Source: an uncultured Spirochaetales bacterium (GTDB taxonomy: Bacteria > Spirochaetota > Spirochaetia > CAZEKV01). Taken from it: a stretch of 24,000 nucleotides of DNA. A program made the translations under genes and the position numbers. Under the pieces are notes generated by a model. It saw nothing but the letters and a program-made list of their open reading frames with translations. It did not search any database and was not told where the DNA came from. Of this stretch, positions 5,434 through 13,725 are shown piece by piece. The stretch's first letter is position 1. Every line of letters starts with the position of its first letter. The stretch is from contig CAZEKV010000004.1 of NCBI GenBank assembly GCA_964512945.1, positions 13,172 to 37,171 on the forward strand. The letters run 5' to 3'.

Positions 5434-7227
5434 TTACTTTTGTCTTTTAAGACTCAACTGAAAACGGCAGCCGCCCCTCCTGCGATTTTCAACCCTGATT
5501 GTGCCCTTATATTTCTGCATAATTCTATAGCTGAGGGGAAGCCCCAGTCCCATATTACGCCCTGTTGCGGCTTTTGTAGAAAAAAACGGTAAAAAAATCT
5601 CCTTCTGCTGATCTGCAGGGATTCCCGGACCTGTATCCTCAAACAGGATAATAACCAGGTCTTTTTCGGTTTTCAGGCATATACCAAGAGAGCCTCCGTC
5701 GGGCATAACCTCAAAGGCGTTATATGCAAGATTCAAAAAAACCTGTCTTAGCTCGTTTTTATCCGCTTTGACCTGGCAGGATTCCCCGGCTCTGGAAAAT
5801 TCTATCGTAATTCCCGATTCCTCTGCTTTAACTTTTAGCAGCCGGGTTAGGCTCTGGAGCAGATCTCCGGGATCGAAGATTGTAACCTCACTGGATGATC
5901 TATCCGAGAAAGCTATCAGGTTGCCGACAATTTTCGCTACTGATTCTATTTCTTCCTCGATTCCCCTGATAATATCCATTTGTTTTTCGTTAATGCCGGA
6001 GAATTTCAGATTTTCCAGACAGTAGCCCATGATATCGAGGGGATTGTTTATTTCGTGGGCCACTCCTGCAGATAAAAGCCCGAGAGAGGCCAGATTCTCC
6101 GACAGGGTAATTTTCTCTCTAAGTTTTTCCTGTTCTGTTATATCTGTCATAATTAAAATATTTCCGAGAAGGGTAGACCTTTCCGTTATGGGATAGATAG
6201 TCAGGTTGAACAAGAGGTTTTTCCCATTTTTTTTAAGGGGTATCTGGTAGTAGGTTTTGTATTTTCTGTTACTAAAGGATTTTTTAAGTATTTTTGAGAA
6301 TTTTTCATTTCCCGGGGGTATTAATTCTATAATCCGTTTATCCCCTATATTCGATCCAAGGATATTTTCTGCCGCTGTATTCTGCATTCGGATTTTTCCG
6401 CTGCCGTCCAGTATTACAAAACTAACCGGAAGATCCTTTATTACCGCTTCATTGTATTTGAGTATCTGACTGAATGTTTCTTTTGTCAGGACATCTCTTG
6501 TGTTAAGGCTGTGGGTATAGGCGAGCCGGATCAGGTTTGTTTTGTCAATGTGATCGACTTTTTCCGTGAGAAGAACCCTTCCTTCACGAATAATTGTAAT
6601 CCTGTGGGCTATGTTGTAGATATCATCCACCCTGTGGCTGATAAACATGACCCCCATTTCTCCGGCGGCAGTCCTTTTGTTAAGGATGTCCAGAAGCCGG
6701 CTCTGGTTTTCCGATGATAGTTTTTCAAGGGTTTCGTCCATTAATAAAAATCTGGGGTGGTGGTAAAGATGTCTCAGGATATCAACAAGAACCTTGTCTG
6801 ACAGTTTCAGATCCGACAGCAGGGTAGAGGGATCAAGATCGAAATCCATTTTTTCAATGTACTCACCGGCTGTCTGGAGGTTCTTCCTCCTCGTAATAAA
6901 GGGATAAAGTCCTGCTTTATTGTCAAGGAGAAGATTTTCGGCAACTGTCATATTCTCATAAAGGGGGTTGTTCTGTGCGACAATTCTGATTCCCAGAGCC
7001 ATGGCGGTTCCGGGGATGAGGGGTTCCATTAGTTTTCCCTTCCAGTAGAGTTCCCCTTTTAAGGGGCGCTGCATCCCCGCCACTATGTGGGCAAGTGTTG
7101 ATTTTCCCGCTCCATGCTCGCCTATGATAGCGTGGATTTCTCCTCTCTTAAACTCAAGGTTTATATTTTCCAGGGCGGTTACACTGTTGTATTGCTGGCA
7201 TATCCCACGGGTTCGCAGTAGTACCAT
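5434..7227 (-). CDS. Cytoplasmic sensor histidine kinase with an N-terminal ABC-type ATPase (NBD) domain: NBD-PAS-HisKA-HATPase_c
   Basis: 597 aa with no TM segment. NBD: Walker A GEHGAGKST (aa 36-44), Q-loop Q85, Walker B FLLMDE (aa 160-165), H-loop ISHR (H198), and a degenerate signature LKLSDKV. PAS-like region at aa ~250-365 (VILDGSGKIRMQNTAAENILG...IMTDITEQEKL). H-box GVAHEINNPL (His391 = codon 6057..6055). N-box LNLAYNAFE, G1 DTGPGI, G2 GLGLPL. The start ATG shares one base with the stop of the upstream regulator gene (TGATG). Confidence 0.85.
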   Translation of the reverse strand: MVLLRTRGICQQYNSVTALENINLEFKRGEIHAIIGEHGAGKSTLAHIVAGMQRPLKGELYWKGKLMEPLIPGTAMALGIRIVAQNNPLYENMTVAENLLLDNKAGLYPFITRRKNLQTAGEYIEKMDFDLDPSTLLSDLKLSDKVLVDILRHLYHHPRFLLMDETLEKLSSENQSRLLDILNKRTAAGEMGVMFISHRVDDIYNIAHRITIIREGRVLLTEKVDHIDKTNLIRLAYTHSLNTRDVLTKETFSQILKYNEAVIKDLPVSFVILDGSGKIRMQNTAAENILGSNIGDKRIIELIPPGNEKFSKILKKSFSNRKYKTYYQIPLKKNGKNLLFNLTIYPITERSTLLGNILIMTDITEQEKLREKITLSENLASLGLLSAGVAHEINNPLDIMGYCLENLKFSGINEKQMDIIRGIEEEIESVAKIVGNLIAFSDRSSSEVTIFDPGDLLQSLTRLLKVKAEESGITIEFSRAGESCQVKADKNELRQVFLNLAYNAFEVMPDGGSLGICLKTEKDLVIILFEDTGPGIPADQQKEIFLPFFSTKAATGRNMGLGLPLSYRIMQKYKGTIRVENRRRGGCRFQLSLKRQK

Positions 7228-8570
7228 CAGGTTATCCCGTACTTCTCAAGTTTGTTGTAGAGTGTTTTTCGGCTTATCTTAAGGAATTCTGCTGTTTTTT
7301 TCTTGTTAAAACGCCAGGTTTTCAGTGTTTCGCGGATCAATTTTTCTTCCATTTTGTCTCCTGGTTTTTTTTGGGGAGTTCCCTCTCCATGAACTGTTTT
7401 TTGCAGGAGATCCGGGGGTAAATCCTGGATGGTGATAGATTTACCGGTAGAGACCGCTTCCATATAATGAATAGCGTTTTTTAATTCCCTTATATTTCCC
7501 GGCCAGGTGTAGTTATTTATTATTTCCATTACTTCATTACTCAGGGATTTCTGAGGGGTGTTAAGGTTTTCCGAGATCTCTTTTAGAAAATAATCAATAA
7601 GGAGGGGGAGATCCCCCTTTCTTTCCCTTAAGGGAGGGATCCTGATTGTTGCGAGATTGAGTCTGTAAAACAAATCCTCCCGGAATTCTCCTTTTTTAAG
7701 CATTTCCTGGAGATTTTTATTAGTAGCTCCTATAAAACGAACATCAACTGTTATTGTTGATTCCCCCCCGAGTCTTCTTATTTCCTTGTTCTGAAGGGTC
7801 CTCAGTATTTTCGATTGAATTTCCAGGGGCATATCTCCTATCTCATCGAGGAAGAGGGTTGTTCCCCCGGCTCTCTCGAATATGCCCTTGAAATTCCTGT
7901 CTGCACCCGTATAGGCACCCTTCTCGTGGCCGAATAATTCATTATCAAGAAGATTTTCGGGAAGAGCGGCACAGTTTAGCTTGTAGAATTTTTTGTTGCT
8001 GCGTGAGGACTGTTTGTGAATAAAATCAGCTATCAGCTCTTTCCCCGTCCCGCTTTCTCCCGTAATCAGAATGGGGAAATCCCTTTCTGCAAGTTTTCTT
8101 AGCTTTTCAAGGATTCCGAGCAGCTCCCCGTTTTTTGTAATAAGCCTGTTTTTATTTTCCTGGAGAAGCTCCTTTAGTTTGGTATTCTCCTCTTTCAGGT
8201 GCTTATAGCTTCCTGCATTGATGACCCTTTGATATATTTTTGCAAAGTTTACGGGTTTCTGGATATAATCATAGGCTCCGAGTTTAAGTGCTTCAACTGC
8301 GTTTTCTACTGTCCCGTATCCTGTTACCATAATCACCGGAATGCTGCTGTAGTTTTTTCTGAGATATTTCAGAAGCTCCAGCCCGTTTTCTTCTCCGAGG
8401 CGGAGATCGAGAATAATTGTATCGGGAATGAATTTCTTCAGCTTTTTTTTTGTTTCAGCAGTATTGAGGGCGTATTCCGCTGCACATCCCATGTGCTCGA
8501 AGTCTTTCACAAGTATGCGGCAGAGTTTTTCTTTATCGTCAACCACAAGTATTTTCATAGGGCTATGCAT
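7227..8570 (-). CDS. Sigma-54-dependent response regulator (NtrC family: REC + AAA+ + Fis-type HTH)
   Basis: 447 aa. REC: KILVVDD...IILDLRL. AAA+: Walker A GESGTGKE, sigma-54 contact loop GAYTGA (a GAFTGA variant), Walker B LFLDEIGDM, RFIGATN and FREDLFYRLN. C-terminal HTH: KKKTAEFLKISRKTLYNKLEKYGI. The start could instead be the second Met at 8558 (MKILVVDD). Confidence 0.92.
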   Translation of the reverse strand: MHSPMKILVVDDKEKLCRILVKDFEHMGCAAEYALNTAETKKKLKKFIPDTIILDLRLGEENGLELLKYLRKNYSSIPVIMVTGYGTVENAVEALKLGAYDYIQKPVNFAKIYQRVINAGSYKHLKEENTKLKELLQENKNRLITKNGELLGILEKLRKLAERDFPILITGESGTGKELIADFIHKQSSRSNKKFYKLNCAALPENLLDNELFGHEKGAYTGADRNFKGIFERAGGTTLFLDEIGDMPLEIQSKILRTLQNKEIRRLGGESTITVDVRFIGATNKNLQEMLKKGEFREDLFYRLNLATIRIPPLRERKGDLPLLIDYFLKEISENLNTPQKSLSNEVMEIINNYTWPGNIRELKNAIHYMEAVSTGKSITIQDLPPDLLQKTVHGEGTPQKKPGDKMEEKLIRETLKTWRFNKKKTAEFLKISRKTLYNKLEKYGIT

Positions 8571-8589
8571 TTAGTTAAATCCATTTTTT

Positions 8590-8614
8590 TACACACTGTG
8601 TAATTATTATACAC
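8590..8614. promoter_or_regulatory. Overlapping dyad repeats: candidate enhancer-binding-protein site / operator
   Basis: TACACA-C-TGTGTA is a perfect 6+6 palindrome at 8590..8602. TGTGTA-N7-TACAC forms a second dyad using 8597..8602 and 8610..8614. The element lies 96-120 bp upstream of the sigma-54 -24 element and overlaps the -10/start region of the divergent regulator promoter. Confidence 0.45.
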
Positions 8615-8635
8615 TTTTTTGGGGTATGTTGTCAA
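8606..8635 (-). promoter_or_regulatory. Sigma-70-type promoter of the response-regulator/kinase operon
   Basis: The minus strand reads TTGACA-N18-TATAAT (-35 at 8635..8630, -10 at 8611..8606). Confidence 0.5.
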
Positions 8636-8709
8636 ATTAGCGAAAAATTTGTTTATGTTTCTATCACCTAACAGGGTAACTCTTTTACAGATAGATAATT
8701 AAAATTTTC

Positions 8710-8725
8710 TGGCATGATTTTTGCA
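8710..8725 (+). promoter_or_regulatory. Sigma-54 (-24/-12) promoter of the CUT2 ABC operon
   Basis: TGGCATGATTTTTGCA matches the consensus TGGCACG-N4-TTGCW. GG is at 8711-8712 and GC at 8723-8724, which is the exact canonical spacing, with only one mismatch (C to T) in the fixed positions. It lies 72 nt upstream of the GTG start at 8797. A sigma-54-dependent activator is encoded divergently. Confidence 0.75.
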
Positions 8726-8796
8726 TTGTAGTTTTAATAAACTTCGAAACTCCATCTACTTCAGGGTTTCGGATATAAAACAGGAGGAGAAAAAAG

Positions 8797-9930
8797 GTGA
8801 AACATTTTTTTACGATTTTGTTGGTATTTACTCTGTTTGTTGCAATCCTGCCCGGATGCGGGAGAGGGAGGGGAAATAATTCAGGAGAGGTATCCGTTCT
8901 TCCGGGTGATTCTCCAGAGACAACGGATGAGCAGCTGGCTCTGGCAACGGGTCCCAACGGTGAGACCGCAGTAAGGGCAAAGGAAGTCGTTCTTACAGAA
9001 GACCAGATTGCCAGTATAAAAACTAAGGGCTATACAGCTGCCATGCTATGGGCCGGTTCAGGAGAATGGTATAATGCAATGTCTGATGGAGCCTCTGCCA
9101 TGTTTAAGAAGCTTGGTATAAAGGTTCTTATTAATTCCGATGCCCAGTTCGATATGGCCAAACAGGCTACGGATGTTGAAACAAGTCTTTCTCTAAATCC
9201 GGATATCATTCTTACCCTTGTTGTCGATCCTGTATCCGGAGCCAGGGCCTTTCAGCCGGCAGTAGATGCGGGGGTAACCCTTGTTCTGGCAGACAATGGT
9301 GTTGACGGCTATACCGCAGGAAAGCAGTATTGTTCTGTAGTAACAGGGGATCACTTCGGTATGGGGCGTGCTGCTGCGGAGTTGATGAATGAGGCTATTA
9401 ATGGTTCGGGTGAGATTGGTTTTATCTTCCATGATGCGGATTTTTTTGTAACAAATAATCGGGATAATGAGTTTAAGCGTACTATCAAATCCAGATATTC
9501 AGGTATAAAAATAGTCGCAGAGGGAGGCTTTACCGATGAGGCTGGCACGGAAGAAATTGCCGCAGCGATGTTGACACGTAATCCGGGGATCAAGGGTATA
9601 TATGTTGCCTGGGATGTCGCCGCAGAGGGAGTAATTGCAGCGTTAAGGGCTGCAGGAAGGGAAGATGTAAAAGTCATTACACACGATCTTGGAGCTACAA
9701 ATGATCTTGATATGGCGATGGACGGGAATATGTACGGTAAGGTAGCGGATCTACCCTATGATCTTGGGATGTGTATGGCAAAGATCGCCGCTCTAAACCT
9801 TCTTGGTAAAAAGGTTCCCCCTTTTGTAGTTGTTCCTTCTGTTAAAATGACAAAAGAAAACATTGTTGAGGCATGGAAGGTTTCGTTAAGAAAAATGCCT
9901 CCTGAGAATATACTTAAGACATTAAAATAA
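8797..9930 (+). CDS. ABC transporter substrate-binding lipoprotein, periplasmic-binding-protein type I (ribose/sugar, RbsB-like)
   Basis: 377 aa. GTG start with SD AGGAGGAG. The N-terminus MKHFFTILLVFTLFVAILPGCGRG is a signal peptide plus lipobox Cys. The body has the alternating beta-alpha pattern and length of type-I sugar-binding proteins (VVDPVSG..., LVLADNG..., ITHDLG...). CUT2-type permease and ATPase genes follow. Confidence 0.8.
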   Translation: MKHFFTILLVFTLFVAILPGCGRGRGNNSGEVSVLPGDSPETTDEQLALATGPNGETAVRAKEVVLTEDQIASIKTKGYTAAMLWAGSGEWYNAMSDGASAMFKKLGIKVLINSDAQFDMAKQATDVETSLSLNPDIILTLVVDPVSGARAFQPAVDAGVTLVLADNGVDGYTAGKQYCSVVTGDHFGMGRAAAELMNEAINGSGEIGFIFHDADFFVTNNRDNEFKRTIKSRYSGIKIVAEGGFTDEAGTEEIAAAMLTRNPGIKGIYVAWDVAAEGVIAALRAAGREDVKVITHDLGATNDLDMAMDGNMYGKVADLPYDLGMCMAKIAALNLLGKKVPPFVVVPSVKMTKENIVEAWKVSLRKMPPENILKTLK

Positions 9931-9956
9931 TAATCTAAAATTCTACACTTATTCAG

Positions 9957-9982
9957 CCAGGCGGGAAGTAAAACCCGCCTGG
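9957..9982 (+). promoter_or_regulatory. Intercistronic GC-rich stem-loop after the SBP gene (attenuator / mRNA-stabilising hairpin)
   Basis: Perfect 9-bp stem CCAGGCGGG (9957..9965) / CCCGCCTGG (9974..9982) with an 8-nt loop, 27 nt after the SBP stop. No clear U-tract follows (AGGGTTTATCT), so it is probably not a full terminator. Confidence 0.55.
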
Positions 9983-10007
9983 AGGGTTTATCTCTGGAGG
10001 ATCCTTG

Positions 10008-10967
10008 ATGCAAAATAAATTGTCCGGGCTGCTGAAAAAGAACTACAGCCAGTATGTTGTCTATGTTAGTTTTTTCCTTATTTTGATATTTTTTTCCATA
10101 ACACTGTCGCCTGCGGTATTTTTGTCGCCTTTACAGCTCATGAATATCCTTAGACAAACGGCTATGGTTTCGATTATGGCCGTTGGCATGACTTTTGCGT
10201 TAACCGCCGGGGAGATTGATCTTTCCATAGGATCCCTCGTCGCCCTTTCTGCTCTGGTGACAGGGGTTGTACTGAACAGGTTTGACAGTATACCTCTTGC
10301 ACTTTTTGCGGGGCTTGGTACTGGAGTTACTGTGGGTTTTGTAAATGGGCTTATTACGACAAAAGCACGAATACCCGCTTTCCTGGTAACTCTTGGAACT
10401 GCGAGTATTCTAGGAGGTTTGGCTCGGTCCATCACAAATCTTGAATCTGTTCCCATCATAAATAAAAGTTTTAATTATATATTTGGTTCGGGGAATGTGG
10501 GGATTGTTTCAACCCTTTTTATCTGGACTATTCTAATAGCCTGTGCAGGTCACCTTCTCCTTAAGAACACACCCTTTGGCAGGGCGGTCCTGGCAACGGG
10601 AGGTAATAGAAGTGCTGCAAAATACTCCGGGATACGTACCGACCGTATCAGAATAGCTGTTTTAACAATCAGTGCTCTTTCGGCTTCCTTTGCGGGGGTT
10701 CTCTACGCCGGGCGCCTCCATGGTGCACGCTATACACTGGGAGGATCGGATCTTATGACGGTTATTGCAGCGGTTATAATAGGCGGTACAAGTTTTTCGG
10801 GGGGCATGGGTTCTGTTGTGGGTGCTATAATAGGCTCGCTGGTTATGGGGATGATGAACAGCGGTCTTCTCCTTATGGGGTTGAATGTTTCCCAGCAGAT
10901 GATAGCCCGCGGAATTATCATTATTGTTGCTGTTTCCTTGAGTCTCAGGGAAAAATCCGAGTCCTGA
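10008..10967 (+). CDS. ABC transporter permease, CUT2 family (RbsC/AraH-like)
   Basis: ~319 aa, highly hydrophobic. Family blocks are AVGMTFALTAGEIDLSIGS and ATGGNRSAAKYSGI. The ORF track starts at TTG 10005. ATG 10008 is preferred because SD GGAGG (9996..10000) sits 7 nt upstream of it. Confidence 0.9.
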   Translation: MQNKLSGLLKKNYSQYVVYVSFFLILIFFSITLSPAVFLSPLQLMNILRQTAMVSIMAVGMTFALTAGEIDLSIGSLVALSALVTGVVLNRFDSIPLALFAGLGTGVTVGFVNGLITTKARIPAFLVTLGTASILGGLARSITNLESVPIINKSFNYIFGSGNVGIVSTLFIWTILIACAGHLLLKNTPFGRAVLATGGNRSAAKYSGIRTDRIRIAVLTISALSASFAGVLYAGRLHGARYTLGGSDLMTVIAAVIIGGTSFSGGMGSVVGAIIGSLVMGMMNSGLLLMGLNVSQQMIARGIIIIVAVSLSLREKSES

Positions 10968-10979
10968 CGGGGAGGTGCC

Positions 10980-12161
10980 ATGTTTCTGGATGTATTGAAA
11001 AAAAGGAATCCCGATTTTATAAAAGCTGCGGTTGTTCTCCACCAGAACCGCCGGATCCCCTCAAACTGCTATCTTCTGGATCTTGATAGAATCAGGGAAA
11101 ATGCCAGGATTATCAAGGCAAATGCAGATAGATACAATATGAAAGTGTTCGCCATGAGCAAGCAGATCGGCAGAGAACCCTCGGCGATAAAGGCTCTTTT
11201 TGAGACAGGAATAGTTGACTATGTTACTGTTGATATTCAGGGAGCGAGGGCAGTTGTTTCCGCCGGAGGGGGGATAGGTCACGCCGGACATCTTGTTCAG
11301 ATTCCTGGGGGAGATATCCCCTGGATGATAGAGCATTCTCCTGAGTTCTGGACCGTTTTCAGTTATGAAGCCGCAAAAGAGATAAGTGAAAACCTTCCAC
11401 CGGGAAAAACCCAGAGGGTTCTTGCCCGGATTCAAGCCGAAGGGGATATCTTCTACCGTGGACATGAGGGGGGATTCCCCGCCGAAGAGATCCTGAAAAC
11501 CGCAGAAAGGCTTGCTTCTCTGCAGGGCATAGAGTTTGCAGGAATAACATCTTTTCCCTGTCTGCTTTTTGATAATGTCAAAAAAGATGTATATACAACT
11601 CCCAATCTTAAAACATTAGCCAGGGCTGCAGGGCTTCTGGAAAAAAATGGATGGAATAATCTTGAAATCAACACGCCTGGAACAACAAGTTCCCGGGTCT
11701 TATCCCTTTTTGCCGAGGCAGGTTCGACACAAATTGAACCCGGTCACGGTTTTACAGGAACAACCCCTCTTCATGCCGTAAGGGATCTTCCCGAAACTCC
11801 CGCAGTTCTTTATGTTTCGGAAATCTCTCATTTTCTGGGGGAAACCGCCTATTGCTACGGAGGGGGGCTTTATATAGATCCTGTTTTTCCTCCCTATGAT
11901 GTTCAATGTCTATGTCTGAGTGCTCCGGAAGAGATCCTCCAGAGACAGTTCCATATAGAACTTCCGGCAGATAATGCCATTGATTATTACGGGATGATCC
12001 GGTCTTCTTCTCCACGGCGGGGAGATACGGTAATAATGGGATTCAGACCCCAGGTCTTTGTTACAAGGTCGTATGTTGCAGGAATATCGGGGATAAGCAG
12101 GGGAAACCCCGTACTTGAGGGGATATCCTTTTCTGACGGAAGGAGGGTGGAATGGCCGTAA
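10980..12161 (+). CDS. PLP-dependent alanine-racemase-fold protein, YhfX-like putative amino-acid racemase
   Basis: 393 aa. SD GGGGAGG upstream. The N-terminal region MFLDVLKKRNPDFIKAAVVLHQNRRIPSNCYLLDLDRIRENARII, the candidate PLP Lys in VFAMSKQIGR and GHAGHLVQIP resemble, from my memory, the E. coli YhfX / alanine-racemase N-terminal TIM-barrel family. Family assignment was not verified by a search. Confidence 0.55.
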   Translation: MFLDVLKKRNPDFIKAAVVLHQNRRIPSNCYLLDLDRIRENARIIKANADRYNMKVFAMSKQIGREPSAIKALFETGIVDYVTVDIQGARAVVSAGGGIGHAGHLVQIPGGDIPWMIEHSPEFWTVFSYEAAKEISENLPPGKTQRVLARIQAEGDIFYRGHEGGFPAEEILKTAERLASLQGIEFAGITSFPCLLFDNVKKDVYTTPNLKTLARAAGLLEKNGWNNLEINTPGTTSSRVLSLFAEAGSTQIEPGHGFTGTTPLHAVRDLPETPAVLYVSEISHFLGETAYCYGGGLYIDPVFPPYDVQCLCLSAPEEILQRQFHIELPADNAIDYYGMIRSSSPRRGDTVIMGFRPQVFVTRSYVAGISGISRGNPVLEGISFSDGRRVEWP

Positions 12162-13669
12162 AGAATGGGTATCTTCTTGAGGCAAGGGGAATCCGGAAAA
12201 GTTTTTCCGGTGTGGAGGTTCTTCACGGTGTTGATTTTCTCCTTGAAAATGGGGAAATCCACGGTCTTGCGGGAGCCAATGGGGCGGGCAAGTCCACTTT
12301 AATGAAAATTCTTAACGGGGTTTATCATCTTGACGGGGGGCAAATTTATCTGAACGGGAAGATTATGGCGATAAAAACCCCCATAGAGGCCGCCGGAGCG
12401 GGTATTGCCATGGTCTTTCAGGAATTCAGCCTGATTTCGACAATGACGGTGGCCGAGAATATCTTTCTTGCACGTGAACCCCTGCATAGAATTCTCTTTA
12501 TAAACAAGGAAGAAATTCATGCGAGAACCCTCAAGGTATTGGAACGCCTTAAAGTGGATATCGATCCGGATGAAACCCTGGGGAATCTATCTGTTGGAAC
12601 CCGCCAGATAGTGGAAATTGCGAAAGCTCTCAGCAAGGACTGCCGGGTTTTGATCCTTGATGAACCGACAGCCTCGCTCAGTCAGAGTGAAATATTGATT
12701 TTTTTCAGGATTCTCGCAACCCTCAAAGAACAGGGAATTTCAATTATCATGATAACCCATCATCTCCAGGAGATTATGGATATCTGTGACAGGATTACTG
12801 TTTTAAGGGATGGTAATGTTACCCTGCGGGAGAAAATCGATTCCATTTGCCTGGAGGATGTTATAAAGGCTCTGGCGGGGCAGACGGTAAATCGGGAGGT
12901 ATTCTCCCGTGTTTATAAGTCCTATCAAGGGGGGACTCCCTGTCTTGAAGTAAAAGGTTTGAGGTATGCCTCTCTTCTTTCCGGCATCGATTTTTCTCTT
13001 TACAAGGGCGAGGTTCTTGGTTTTGCCGGATTGCTTGGAAGCGGGAGAACCGAAATTCTCAAGAATATCTATGGTCTTCTGCATCCATCAGGGGGCGAGA
13101 TTCTGATAAACACTAAAAATGTCAGGGTAAAGCATCCTGCCGATGCTCAGAAAGAGGGGGTCAACTTTGTTCCTGAGGACAGGCATAAGAACGGTATAAT
13201 CAGGGGGCAGTCCCTGATGAATAACATAATGCTTTCAGTCTGGAAGGAATATACCCATTTTTTATTTTTGCGTCTGGAAGAAGCCGCAAAGAAGGTCGGT
13301 GTTTTGATAAAACGCCTTAAAATAAAAACTCAGGGATGGAGTCAGCTTATTGAGCAGCTCTCTGGAGGGAACCAGCAAAAAGCGGTTATAGCCAGAGCAA
13401 TAGCGGCAAACACAAGGATCTTACTCCTTGATGAGCCCACCGTTGGGGTTGATATAGCCTCCAAGCAGGAGATTCTCAGTGCGGTGCGTCAGTTTGCCGA
13501 TGAAAACAAGGCCGTGATTATCGTATCCAGTGAGATGGAGGAACTTGCGCAGGTCTGTGACAGGGTTCTGGTTATAAAAGAGGGAAGAATAATAAAGGAG
13601 TTTAATCGCCGCGATGATGTTGAAATAACGGAGGATATTCTAATGGCTGCATCCCAGGGCCGGGTATAG
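12152..13669 (+). CDS. ABC transporter ATP-binding protein, CUT2 family, tandem NBDs (RbsA-like)
   Basis: 505 aa. NBD1: [41 protein letters not shown]2: the family-typical degenerate Walker [25 protein letters not shown] and [11 protein letters not shown]. The start overlaps the racemase-fold gene by 10 nt, and SD GGAGGG lies upstream. Confidence 0.92.
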
Positions 13670-13696: not shown

Positions 13697-13725
13697 TTGA
13701 CAGTATCAAAAAAAGAGCGTATTAT
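13697..13725 (+). promoter_or_regulatory. Near-consensus sigma-70 promoter abutting ptsI
   Basis: TTGACA (13697..13702) - N17 - TATTAT (13720..13725). Only 9 nt separate the -10 from ATG 13735. Confidence 0.55.

Follow-up and report, generated by a model that had tools for sequence, protein, structure and literature searches.

How two gene units that are read away from each other could be controlled from the 226 bp of AT-rich DNA between them is the question raised by this locus. It lies in the stretch of 24,000 nt analysed here (the window; C4:13172-37171), which belongs to a metagenome-assembled genome of 2.35 Mb (39% G+C, 82% complete) from an uncultured spirochaete-class bacterium. In our view, the gap is likely to be a back-to-back control region, in which the phosphorylated form of a response regulator encoded on one side would activate a transporter operon on the other side and block its own promoter.

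Genes and promoters on either side of the gap

The regulator gene on the minus strand (Table 1) encodes a protein with profile scores for Sigma54_activat (4.6e-67) and HTH_8 (9.9e-11; both Pfam), and a motif check and an HTH alignment revealed Walker A and Walker B motifs, GAYTGA at residue 214 and a Fis-type HTH. Judged by its sequence, the protein is an intact sigma-54 activator. GAYTGA is a natural working variant that is invariant and functional in HrpS (PMC3105312) and that belongs to the variants tolerated in Clostridiales (PMC6615313). The genome also holds a complete rpoN gene on contig C11, the product of which comprises 457 aa with AID, CBD and DBD domains.

Table 1. Coordinates of the features discussed in the text (positions of the window).
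Feature	Position	Strand	Remarks
Cognate soluble histidine kinase, 597 aa	5434..7227	-	ABC-type ATPase domain, PAS, HisKA, HATPase (Pfam)
NtrC-type response regulator	7227..8570	-	receiver, Sigma54_activat, AAA lid, HTH_8 (Pfam)
Regulator start codon, two candidates	ATG 8570 or ATG 8558	-	8570 with weak GGA; 8558 without SD
Perfect palindrome TTACACA-C-TGTGTAA	8589..8603	.	7-nt arms; left arm 8589-8595 is the extra upstream half-site
Conserved dyad GTGTA-N7-TACAC, candidate UAS core	8598..8614	.	-10 hexamer lies within spacer and right arm
Predicted sigma-70 promoter TTGACA (8635-8630)-N18-TATAAT (8611-8606)	8606..8635	-	12/12
Predicted sigma-54 (-24/-12) promoter TGGCATG-N4-TTGCA	8710..8725	+	TGGCATGATTTTTGCA; GG 8711-8712, GC 8723-8724
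Possible leader hairpin	8744..8772	+	arms 8744-8750 and 8766-8772; weak
Target operon	8797..13669	+	binding protein, permease, YhfX-like PLP enzyme, tandem ABC ATPase (Pfam)
Peripla_BP_4 binding protein	8797-9930	+	Pfam
BPD_transp_2 permease	10005-10967	+	Pfam
YhfX-like PLP enzyme	10980-12161	+	Pfam
Tandem ABC ATPase	12152-13669	+	Pfam
ptsI sigma-70 promoter TTGACA-N17-TATTAT	13697-13725	+	11/12; followed after 9 nt by the ptsI ATG (13735)

Upstream of the regulator gene, a 9-codon ORF (MDLTKCIAL, 8555-8584, minus strand) starts with ATG 8584 and ends with a TGA that overlaps ATG 8558 (ATGA), and in the closest orthologous locus (L002) the counterpart of its start, ATGGAT, shares the reading frame of the regulator. 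Since this start thus opens a separate ORF in the window and an in-frame reading in L002, the true start of the regulator, 8570 or 8558, is uncertain. The kinase gene follows directly after the regulator gene, and co-transcription of both is predicted. Within the genome, the kinase's ABC-ATPase domain has its closest paralogue in the adjoining transporter, namely the first ATPase domain there (32% identity).

On the plus strand, the gene order of the target operon is identical in L002, L035 and L036. As ptsI has an 11/12 promoter of its own, the operon probably ends at 13669; a terminator-like site between the ABC ATPase gene and ptsI was looked for, and none was found.

The original prediction placed a -24/-12 promoter for this operon at 8710-8725, with a single mismatch to TGGCACG-N4-TTGCW, followed after 72 nt by a GTG start codon at 8797 with an SD sequence. 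All of these elements are present. The motif reads TGGCATG-ATTT-TTGCA, with a distance of exactly 10 nt between GG and GC, one C-to-T change relative to the above consensus and no mismatch to TGGCAYG-N4-TTGCW, and the SD is AGGAGGAG at 8782-8789. Transcription of the operon is predicted to start near 8735-8736, giving a leader of ~61 nt. Such motifs are rare: the strict form TGGCAYG-N4-TTGCW occurs five times in the 2.35-Mb genome, compared to ~0.7 occurrences expected from base composition, and a weighted sigma-54 score of at least 20.0 is reached by ten sites genome-wide, among which the one at 8710-8725 ranks third. All ten are located outside same-strand ORFs, and for nine of them an ORF begins 5-71 nt downstream; the majority of the sites scoring 19.0-19.9 are located within ORFs.

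Eight other top candidates of the genome (C7:30391, C39:11832, C65:6517, C35:11564, C8:6005, C30:5096, C135:5278 and C126:617) are found outside same-strand ORFs, 5-38 nt before an ORF start, and provide a preliminary outline of the sigma-54 regulon in this organism. A further sigma-54-like motif of the window, TGGCATGACTTTTGCG (10184-10199, plus strand; score 19.9, one mismatch to the degenerate consensus), resides in the permease ORF and is probably a coding by-product; the permease gene of L002 holds AGGTATGACTTTTGCT (L002 4548). A second sigma-54 promoter that would serve the regulator gene was rejected, as the window contains no minus-strand match.

Facing the regulator and kinase genes, the proposed TTGACA-N18-TATAAT promoter was found exactly where it had been placed, and the regulator mRNA is predicted to start near 8599 on the minus strand. 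Perfect TTGACA-N16-18-TATAAT combinations number only 13 in the whole genome. The N18 spacer exceeds the sigma-70 optimum, which is a point against the control proposed here.

Less remained of the leader hairpin that had been suggested at 8753-8759 and 8775-8781. The arms TCGAAAC and GTTTCGG really stand 9 nt away (Table 1), the fold has a z of -0.78 compared to shuffles (42 of 200 shuffles fold as well), an Rfam search of the leader gave no match at E up to 1, and the consensus fold with L002 reaches only -3.75 kcal/mol. In L035 and L036, leaders are far shorter, and the hairpin is absent from short-leader orthologues. With its z score, the lack of an Rfam match, the weak two-sequence consensus and the misplaced arms, a riboswitch or attenuator was rejected, and the hairpin is probably not functional. 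No match to the IHF consensus WATCAR-N4-TTR was found on either strand between the putative enhancer and the promoter, another point against the proposed control; the genome holds two genes of the HU/IHF family.

Conservation of the layout in related loci

A comparison of the gap across related genomes had been suggested as a check, and in it both the -24/-12 element and the half-sites described below turned out to be conserved. The comparison set consisted of 37 non-redundant loci, from which the window was excluded and in which the regulator is 47-74% identical to that of the window; since these loci are mutually related, the shuffle statistics given for them overstate independence. The loci (L002, L010-L012, L034-L040 and L043-L068) were obtained by a protein search with contig look-ups and by whole-genome searches of the class.

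In all 37 loci, a kinase with an N-terminal ABC-ATPase domain follows the regulator (tblastn, 33-73% identity). What is encoded on the divergent side is in most cases a sugar-type ABC transporter or a catabolic enzyme. A sigma-54 site that scores at least 19.0 and points away from the regulator is present in 35 of the 37 loci, compared to ~0.2 expected at the density that such sites have across the genome of the window, which supports the assignment of a sigma-54 promoter to the transporter operon. Similarly, a sigma-70 promoter of at least 10/12 towards the regulator was found in 26 of the 37 loci (27 of 38 when the window is counted, compared to 3.4 in shuffles), and this backs the promoter that had been proposed for the regulator and kinase genes. 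The two elements keep a characteristic distance in the related loci, with 56-104 bp, mostly 71-91, between the -35 hexamer and the TGG of the sigma-54 site.

L002, a Spirochaetaceae MAG locus with the same gene order, is the closest orthologue (regulator 74% and binding protein 80% identical). According to a pairwise alignment, it has kept both sigma-70 hexamers and the N18 distance with a different spacer sequence. The -24/-12 motif is retained as TGGCATATTTCTTGCA and the half-site cluster as TATACA-AAA-TGTATA followed by TATACA, and the rest of the gap has diverged.

The binding protein also occurs without a divergent regulator, as seen in L003 and L004 (Chloroflexota; MAG labelled Mycobacteriaceae) and in the metagenome locus L029 (62-73% identity, with 73% in L029). 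In L029, what lies just upstream of the gene is another ORF of equal size (379 aa) in place of a regulator, which made this locus uninformative for the comparison. The run of downstream ORF sizes in these three loci is similar to that of the window, and a strong -24/-12 motif was not found in L003 or L004. It seems that the same transporter is wired to different regulators in other lineages.

The half-site cluster and the protein that would read it

The original prediction had singled out the palindrome TACACA-C-TGTGTA at 8590-8602, with a third half-site, TACAC, 7 nt past it, as a site for the neighbouring GAYTGA activator, at the 80-150 bp upstream that are usual for dyads of the NtrC family. 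The palindrome is indeed there and extends to arms of 7 nt, the third half-site was located at 8610-8614, and the distance from the half-sites at 8589-8614 to 8710 is 96-121 bp, within this range and with the activator gene beside them. If transcription starts at ~8599, they reach from about -16 to +9 in the sigma-70 promoter of the regulator, so that the proposed overlap of activator site and promoter stands. The part to be corrected is the rank of the 1-nt-spaced palindrome as the core, as the best-conserved unit is GTGTA-N7-TACAC. This dyad has its left arm in common with the right arm of the palindrome, brackets the -10 hexamer (8606-8611) and covers about -16 to +1 of the promoter; its centre is 104.5 bp away from the -24 GG, near -130 relative to the predicted start at ~8736.

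A scan of the genome for other copies, as originally suggested, showed that the 13-nt palindrome is unique. The chance of finding some perfect palindrome with 6-nt arms and a short spacer in 230 bp of AT-rich DNA was estimated to be roughly 0.3, which is not rare, and the significance of the palindrome at 8590-8602 hence rests on conservation. When hexamers were counted in the 37 gaps in an unbiased manner, TACACA/TGTGTA ranked first (26 loci compared to 3.6 in shuffles, z 9.4) and TGTCAA/TTGACA second (24 loci compared to 3.5). With at least 9 of the 10 arm positions, GTGTA-N7-TACAC was present in 17 of the 37 loci, compared to 0.19 in shuffles with a shuffle maximum of 2, and it is invariant, as one block, across the five loci of alignment A2.

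TGTGTA and the next TA(T/C)ACAC stand at a constant distance in the nearest relatives (L034-L036, L043, L054, L058 and L066), L038-L040 show variants of this arrangement, and in L002, L034-L036, L043, L054, L058 and L066 the dyad surrounds the -10 of the regulator promoter with the same geometry. The additional half-site upstream is placed less regularly: it is 1 nt away from the right arm in the window, L057 and L064, 3 nt away (xACA-N3-TGTG) in L002, L034-L040 and L066, and L043, L054, L058 and L066 have a separate TACACA at ~22 nt from this arm; such variation is a point against a clear role of the half-site. Overall, the window has three half-sites (1.5 dyads), and its relatives have three to four with variable upstream spacing.

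One could argue that the 1-nt-spaced TACACA-C-TGTGTA is nevertheless the functional unit and that TACAC at 8610-8614 is conserved as promoter context alone. The palindrome is perfect (7+7) and unique in the genome, the same 13-mer stands beside the regulator gene in L064 and with one change in L057, and the N1 form is enriched (at least 10 of 12 positions in 9 of the 37 loci, compared to 0.6 in shuffles), as is the N3 form (10 loci compared to 0.74). We consider this reading unlikely. Half-site centres that are ~12 bp apart suit a dimeric HTH of the NtrC/Fis type better than the 7-8 bp of the palindrome, which are short by what is established for such proteins, the spacing of the left arm varies among the nearest relatives (3 or ~22 nt) whereas that from TGTGTA to TACAC is fixed, and the CAC at -15 to -13 is outside any sigma-70 consensus element. 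GTGTA-N7-TACAC is thus probably the core binding site of the response regulator, and the left arm of the palindrome (8589-8595) may be read as an auxiliary half-site that is less constrained.

As the conserved block includes the -10 hexamer, the predicted start and the early leader of the regulator mRNA, its conservation might also reflect only what the sigma-70 promoter and this mRNA's 5' end require, without any enhancer bound by a protein. We give this hardly any credence: the GTGTA and TACAC arms are symmetric, lie outside the -10 and are unlike a TGn extended -10, the 11/12 promoter of ptsI in the same window has no such arms, and with a start at ~8599 too little of the dyad would be transcribed for an RNA stem.

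If a protein binds the GTGTA-N7-TACAC core, the question arises which protein this would be. Dyads rich in TGTG/CACA loosely resemble CRP-type sites, and some sigma-54 activators work without enhancers. As such, the cluster could belong to another, possibly global factor (CRP/FNR-like or a sugar repressor), with the activator binding elsewhere or without specificity. This appears very improbable to us, since the motif travels with the regulator family across many genera, in a fixed place beside the regulator gene, and since the regulator retains a full HTH_8 domain. The genome contains GTGTA-N7-TACAC at two places (this gap and C3:31531), unlike what is expected for a global regulator, and the extended pattern here alone. 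With one other genomic place the regulon is probably local, and a wider regulon in this genome was rejected on the same count.

Regulator subgroups with altered HTH helices have different dyads at the equivalent position. TGAGTAA-N3-TTACTCA stands in L056 and L062 and, in imperfect form, in L055 and L068; L010 has TGAACACT-N12-AGTGTTCA, L012 three TTCTGAACA repeats, and L061 two TGTCCT-N5-AGGACA palindromes (AAATC and GATTT as spacers). Dyads of a GAGTA type and repeats of a TGAACA type are thus among them. The recognition helix, too, varies between these subgroups (for example, SRKTLYNK versus SRKTLYSK or SRNTLYSK), and such a concurrence of other helices with other repeats speaks for the neighbouring regulator rather than for a global factor. 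When helix and dyad type were related to each other, the dyad was found in 14 of 26 YNK loci and in 3 of 11 others, a trend among related loci; as proof of the binder this correlation was therefore set aside. The subgroup-specific repeats and helices are possible raw material for a recognition code of this activator family.

Proposed control and its relation to known systems

The most likely, and also the most economical, course of events is the following, classical one. The sigma-70 promoter (8635-8606, minus strand) would provide a basal level of the response regulator and of its ABC-ATPase-fused kinase. Dimers of the regulator would bind via their Fis-type HTH to the TGTGTA/TACACA cluster at 8589-8614, with GTGTA-N7-TACAC as the core, and, upon phosphorylation, would oligomerise on these sites into an active AAA+ ring. 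The ring could then loop over ~105 bp of AT-rich DNA to the sigma-54 RNA polymerase waiting at 8710-8725, where ATP and the GAYTGA loop would open the promoter, and the genes for the binding protein, the permease, the YhfX-like enzyme and the ATPase would be transcribed from ~8736. Since the bound sites extend from -16 to +9 in the promoter of the regulator, their occupancy would at the same time hinder the sigma-70 polymerase there and thereby cause negative feedback. The distances between dyad and sigma-54 promoter in the related loci (82.5-115.5 bp, 181.5 bp in L034) revealed no clean 10.5-bp periodicity of helical phasing; in homologous register, L002 deviates from the window by 9 bp.

Sites with such a dual role have long been familiar from NtrC of enteric bacteria, which at glnAp1/glnAp2 activates the sigma-54 promoter from enhancer sites that overlap and repress the sigma-70 promoter. 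NtrC is likewise a response regulator; however, its two promoters both point towards glnA and its site is TGCACC-N5-GGTGCA, whereas the promoters of the window diverge and the proposed target of repression is the regulator's own promoter.

A divergent pair exists in the case of XylR at Pr/Ps of the TOL plasmid pWW0 (Pseudomonas putida): its gene has a sigma-70 promoter that stands back to back with the sigma-54 promoter activated by XylR, and activation of Ps down-regulates transcription of the activator itself (PMC3469447). XylR differs in being a one-component, effector-binding protein with another regulator gene as the target of Ps, whereas the window encodes a response regulator that would be phosphorylated, a kinase with an ABC-ATPase input domain and a transporter operon as the target, and the sites of both systems have no sequence relationship. 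In Desulfovibrio vulgaris Hildenborough, the palindromic sites of OrpR (DVU2106) overlap its own sigma-70 promoter in a negative loop and also serve sigma-54 promoters (PMC3897727). That system serves a pair of divergent sigma-54 operons and depends on IHF sites placed between enhancer and promoters, in contrast to the one sigma-54 promoter and the lack of an IHF consensus in the window. OrpR/DVU2106 and XylR at Pr/Ps are thus precedents for an enhancer that sits on the sigma-70 promoter of its own activator.

The spacing of the dyad has a parallel in NorR/norVW of Escherichia coli, where the activator gene diverges from a sigma-54 target and the inverted repeats have a 7-nt spacer with the core GT-(N7)-AC (PMC2831303). 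NorR needs three full dyads (PMC2831303) and senses NO via a GAF domain, whereas the window has GTGTA/TACAC arms, a regulator with a receiver domain and 1.5 dyads, the latter being a point against the proposed mechanism.

Beyond this locus, it is possible, and for the time being a tentative thought, that the TGTGTA/TACACA cluster around the -10, at a fixed 60-105 bp from the sigma-54 promoter, is a cis-code of the whole family, by which sigma-70 polymerase and activator would compete for the same 25 bp and form a toggle. In the literature, we found no description of a site for this regulator family and no report that such transporters are under sigma-54 control in spirochaetes. The sigma-54 switch mechanism itself is textbook knowledge, and the added value lies in the cis-code proposed for a family with ABC-ATPase-fused kinases. 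If this code is shared, the family would consist of undescribed two-component systems whose kinases sense via the ATPase domain of an ABC transporter, and if the toggle is real, regulator synthesis and transporter induction would be mutually exclusive and tied to transporter activity.

Since the layout and a related half-site recur across the sampled regulator family, the motif can be used to predict its regulons, and it can also be used to design reporter assays for what the ABC-ATPase-fused kinase senses. For an uncultured bacterium of the spirochaete class, a testable wiring diagram thus becomes available that comprises the promoter of a transporter operon, the putative docking site of its activator and the way in which this activator may limit itself.
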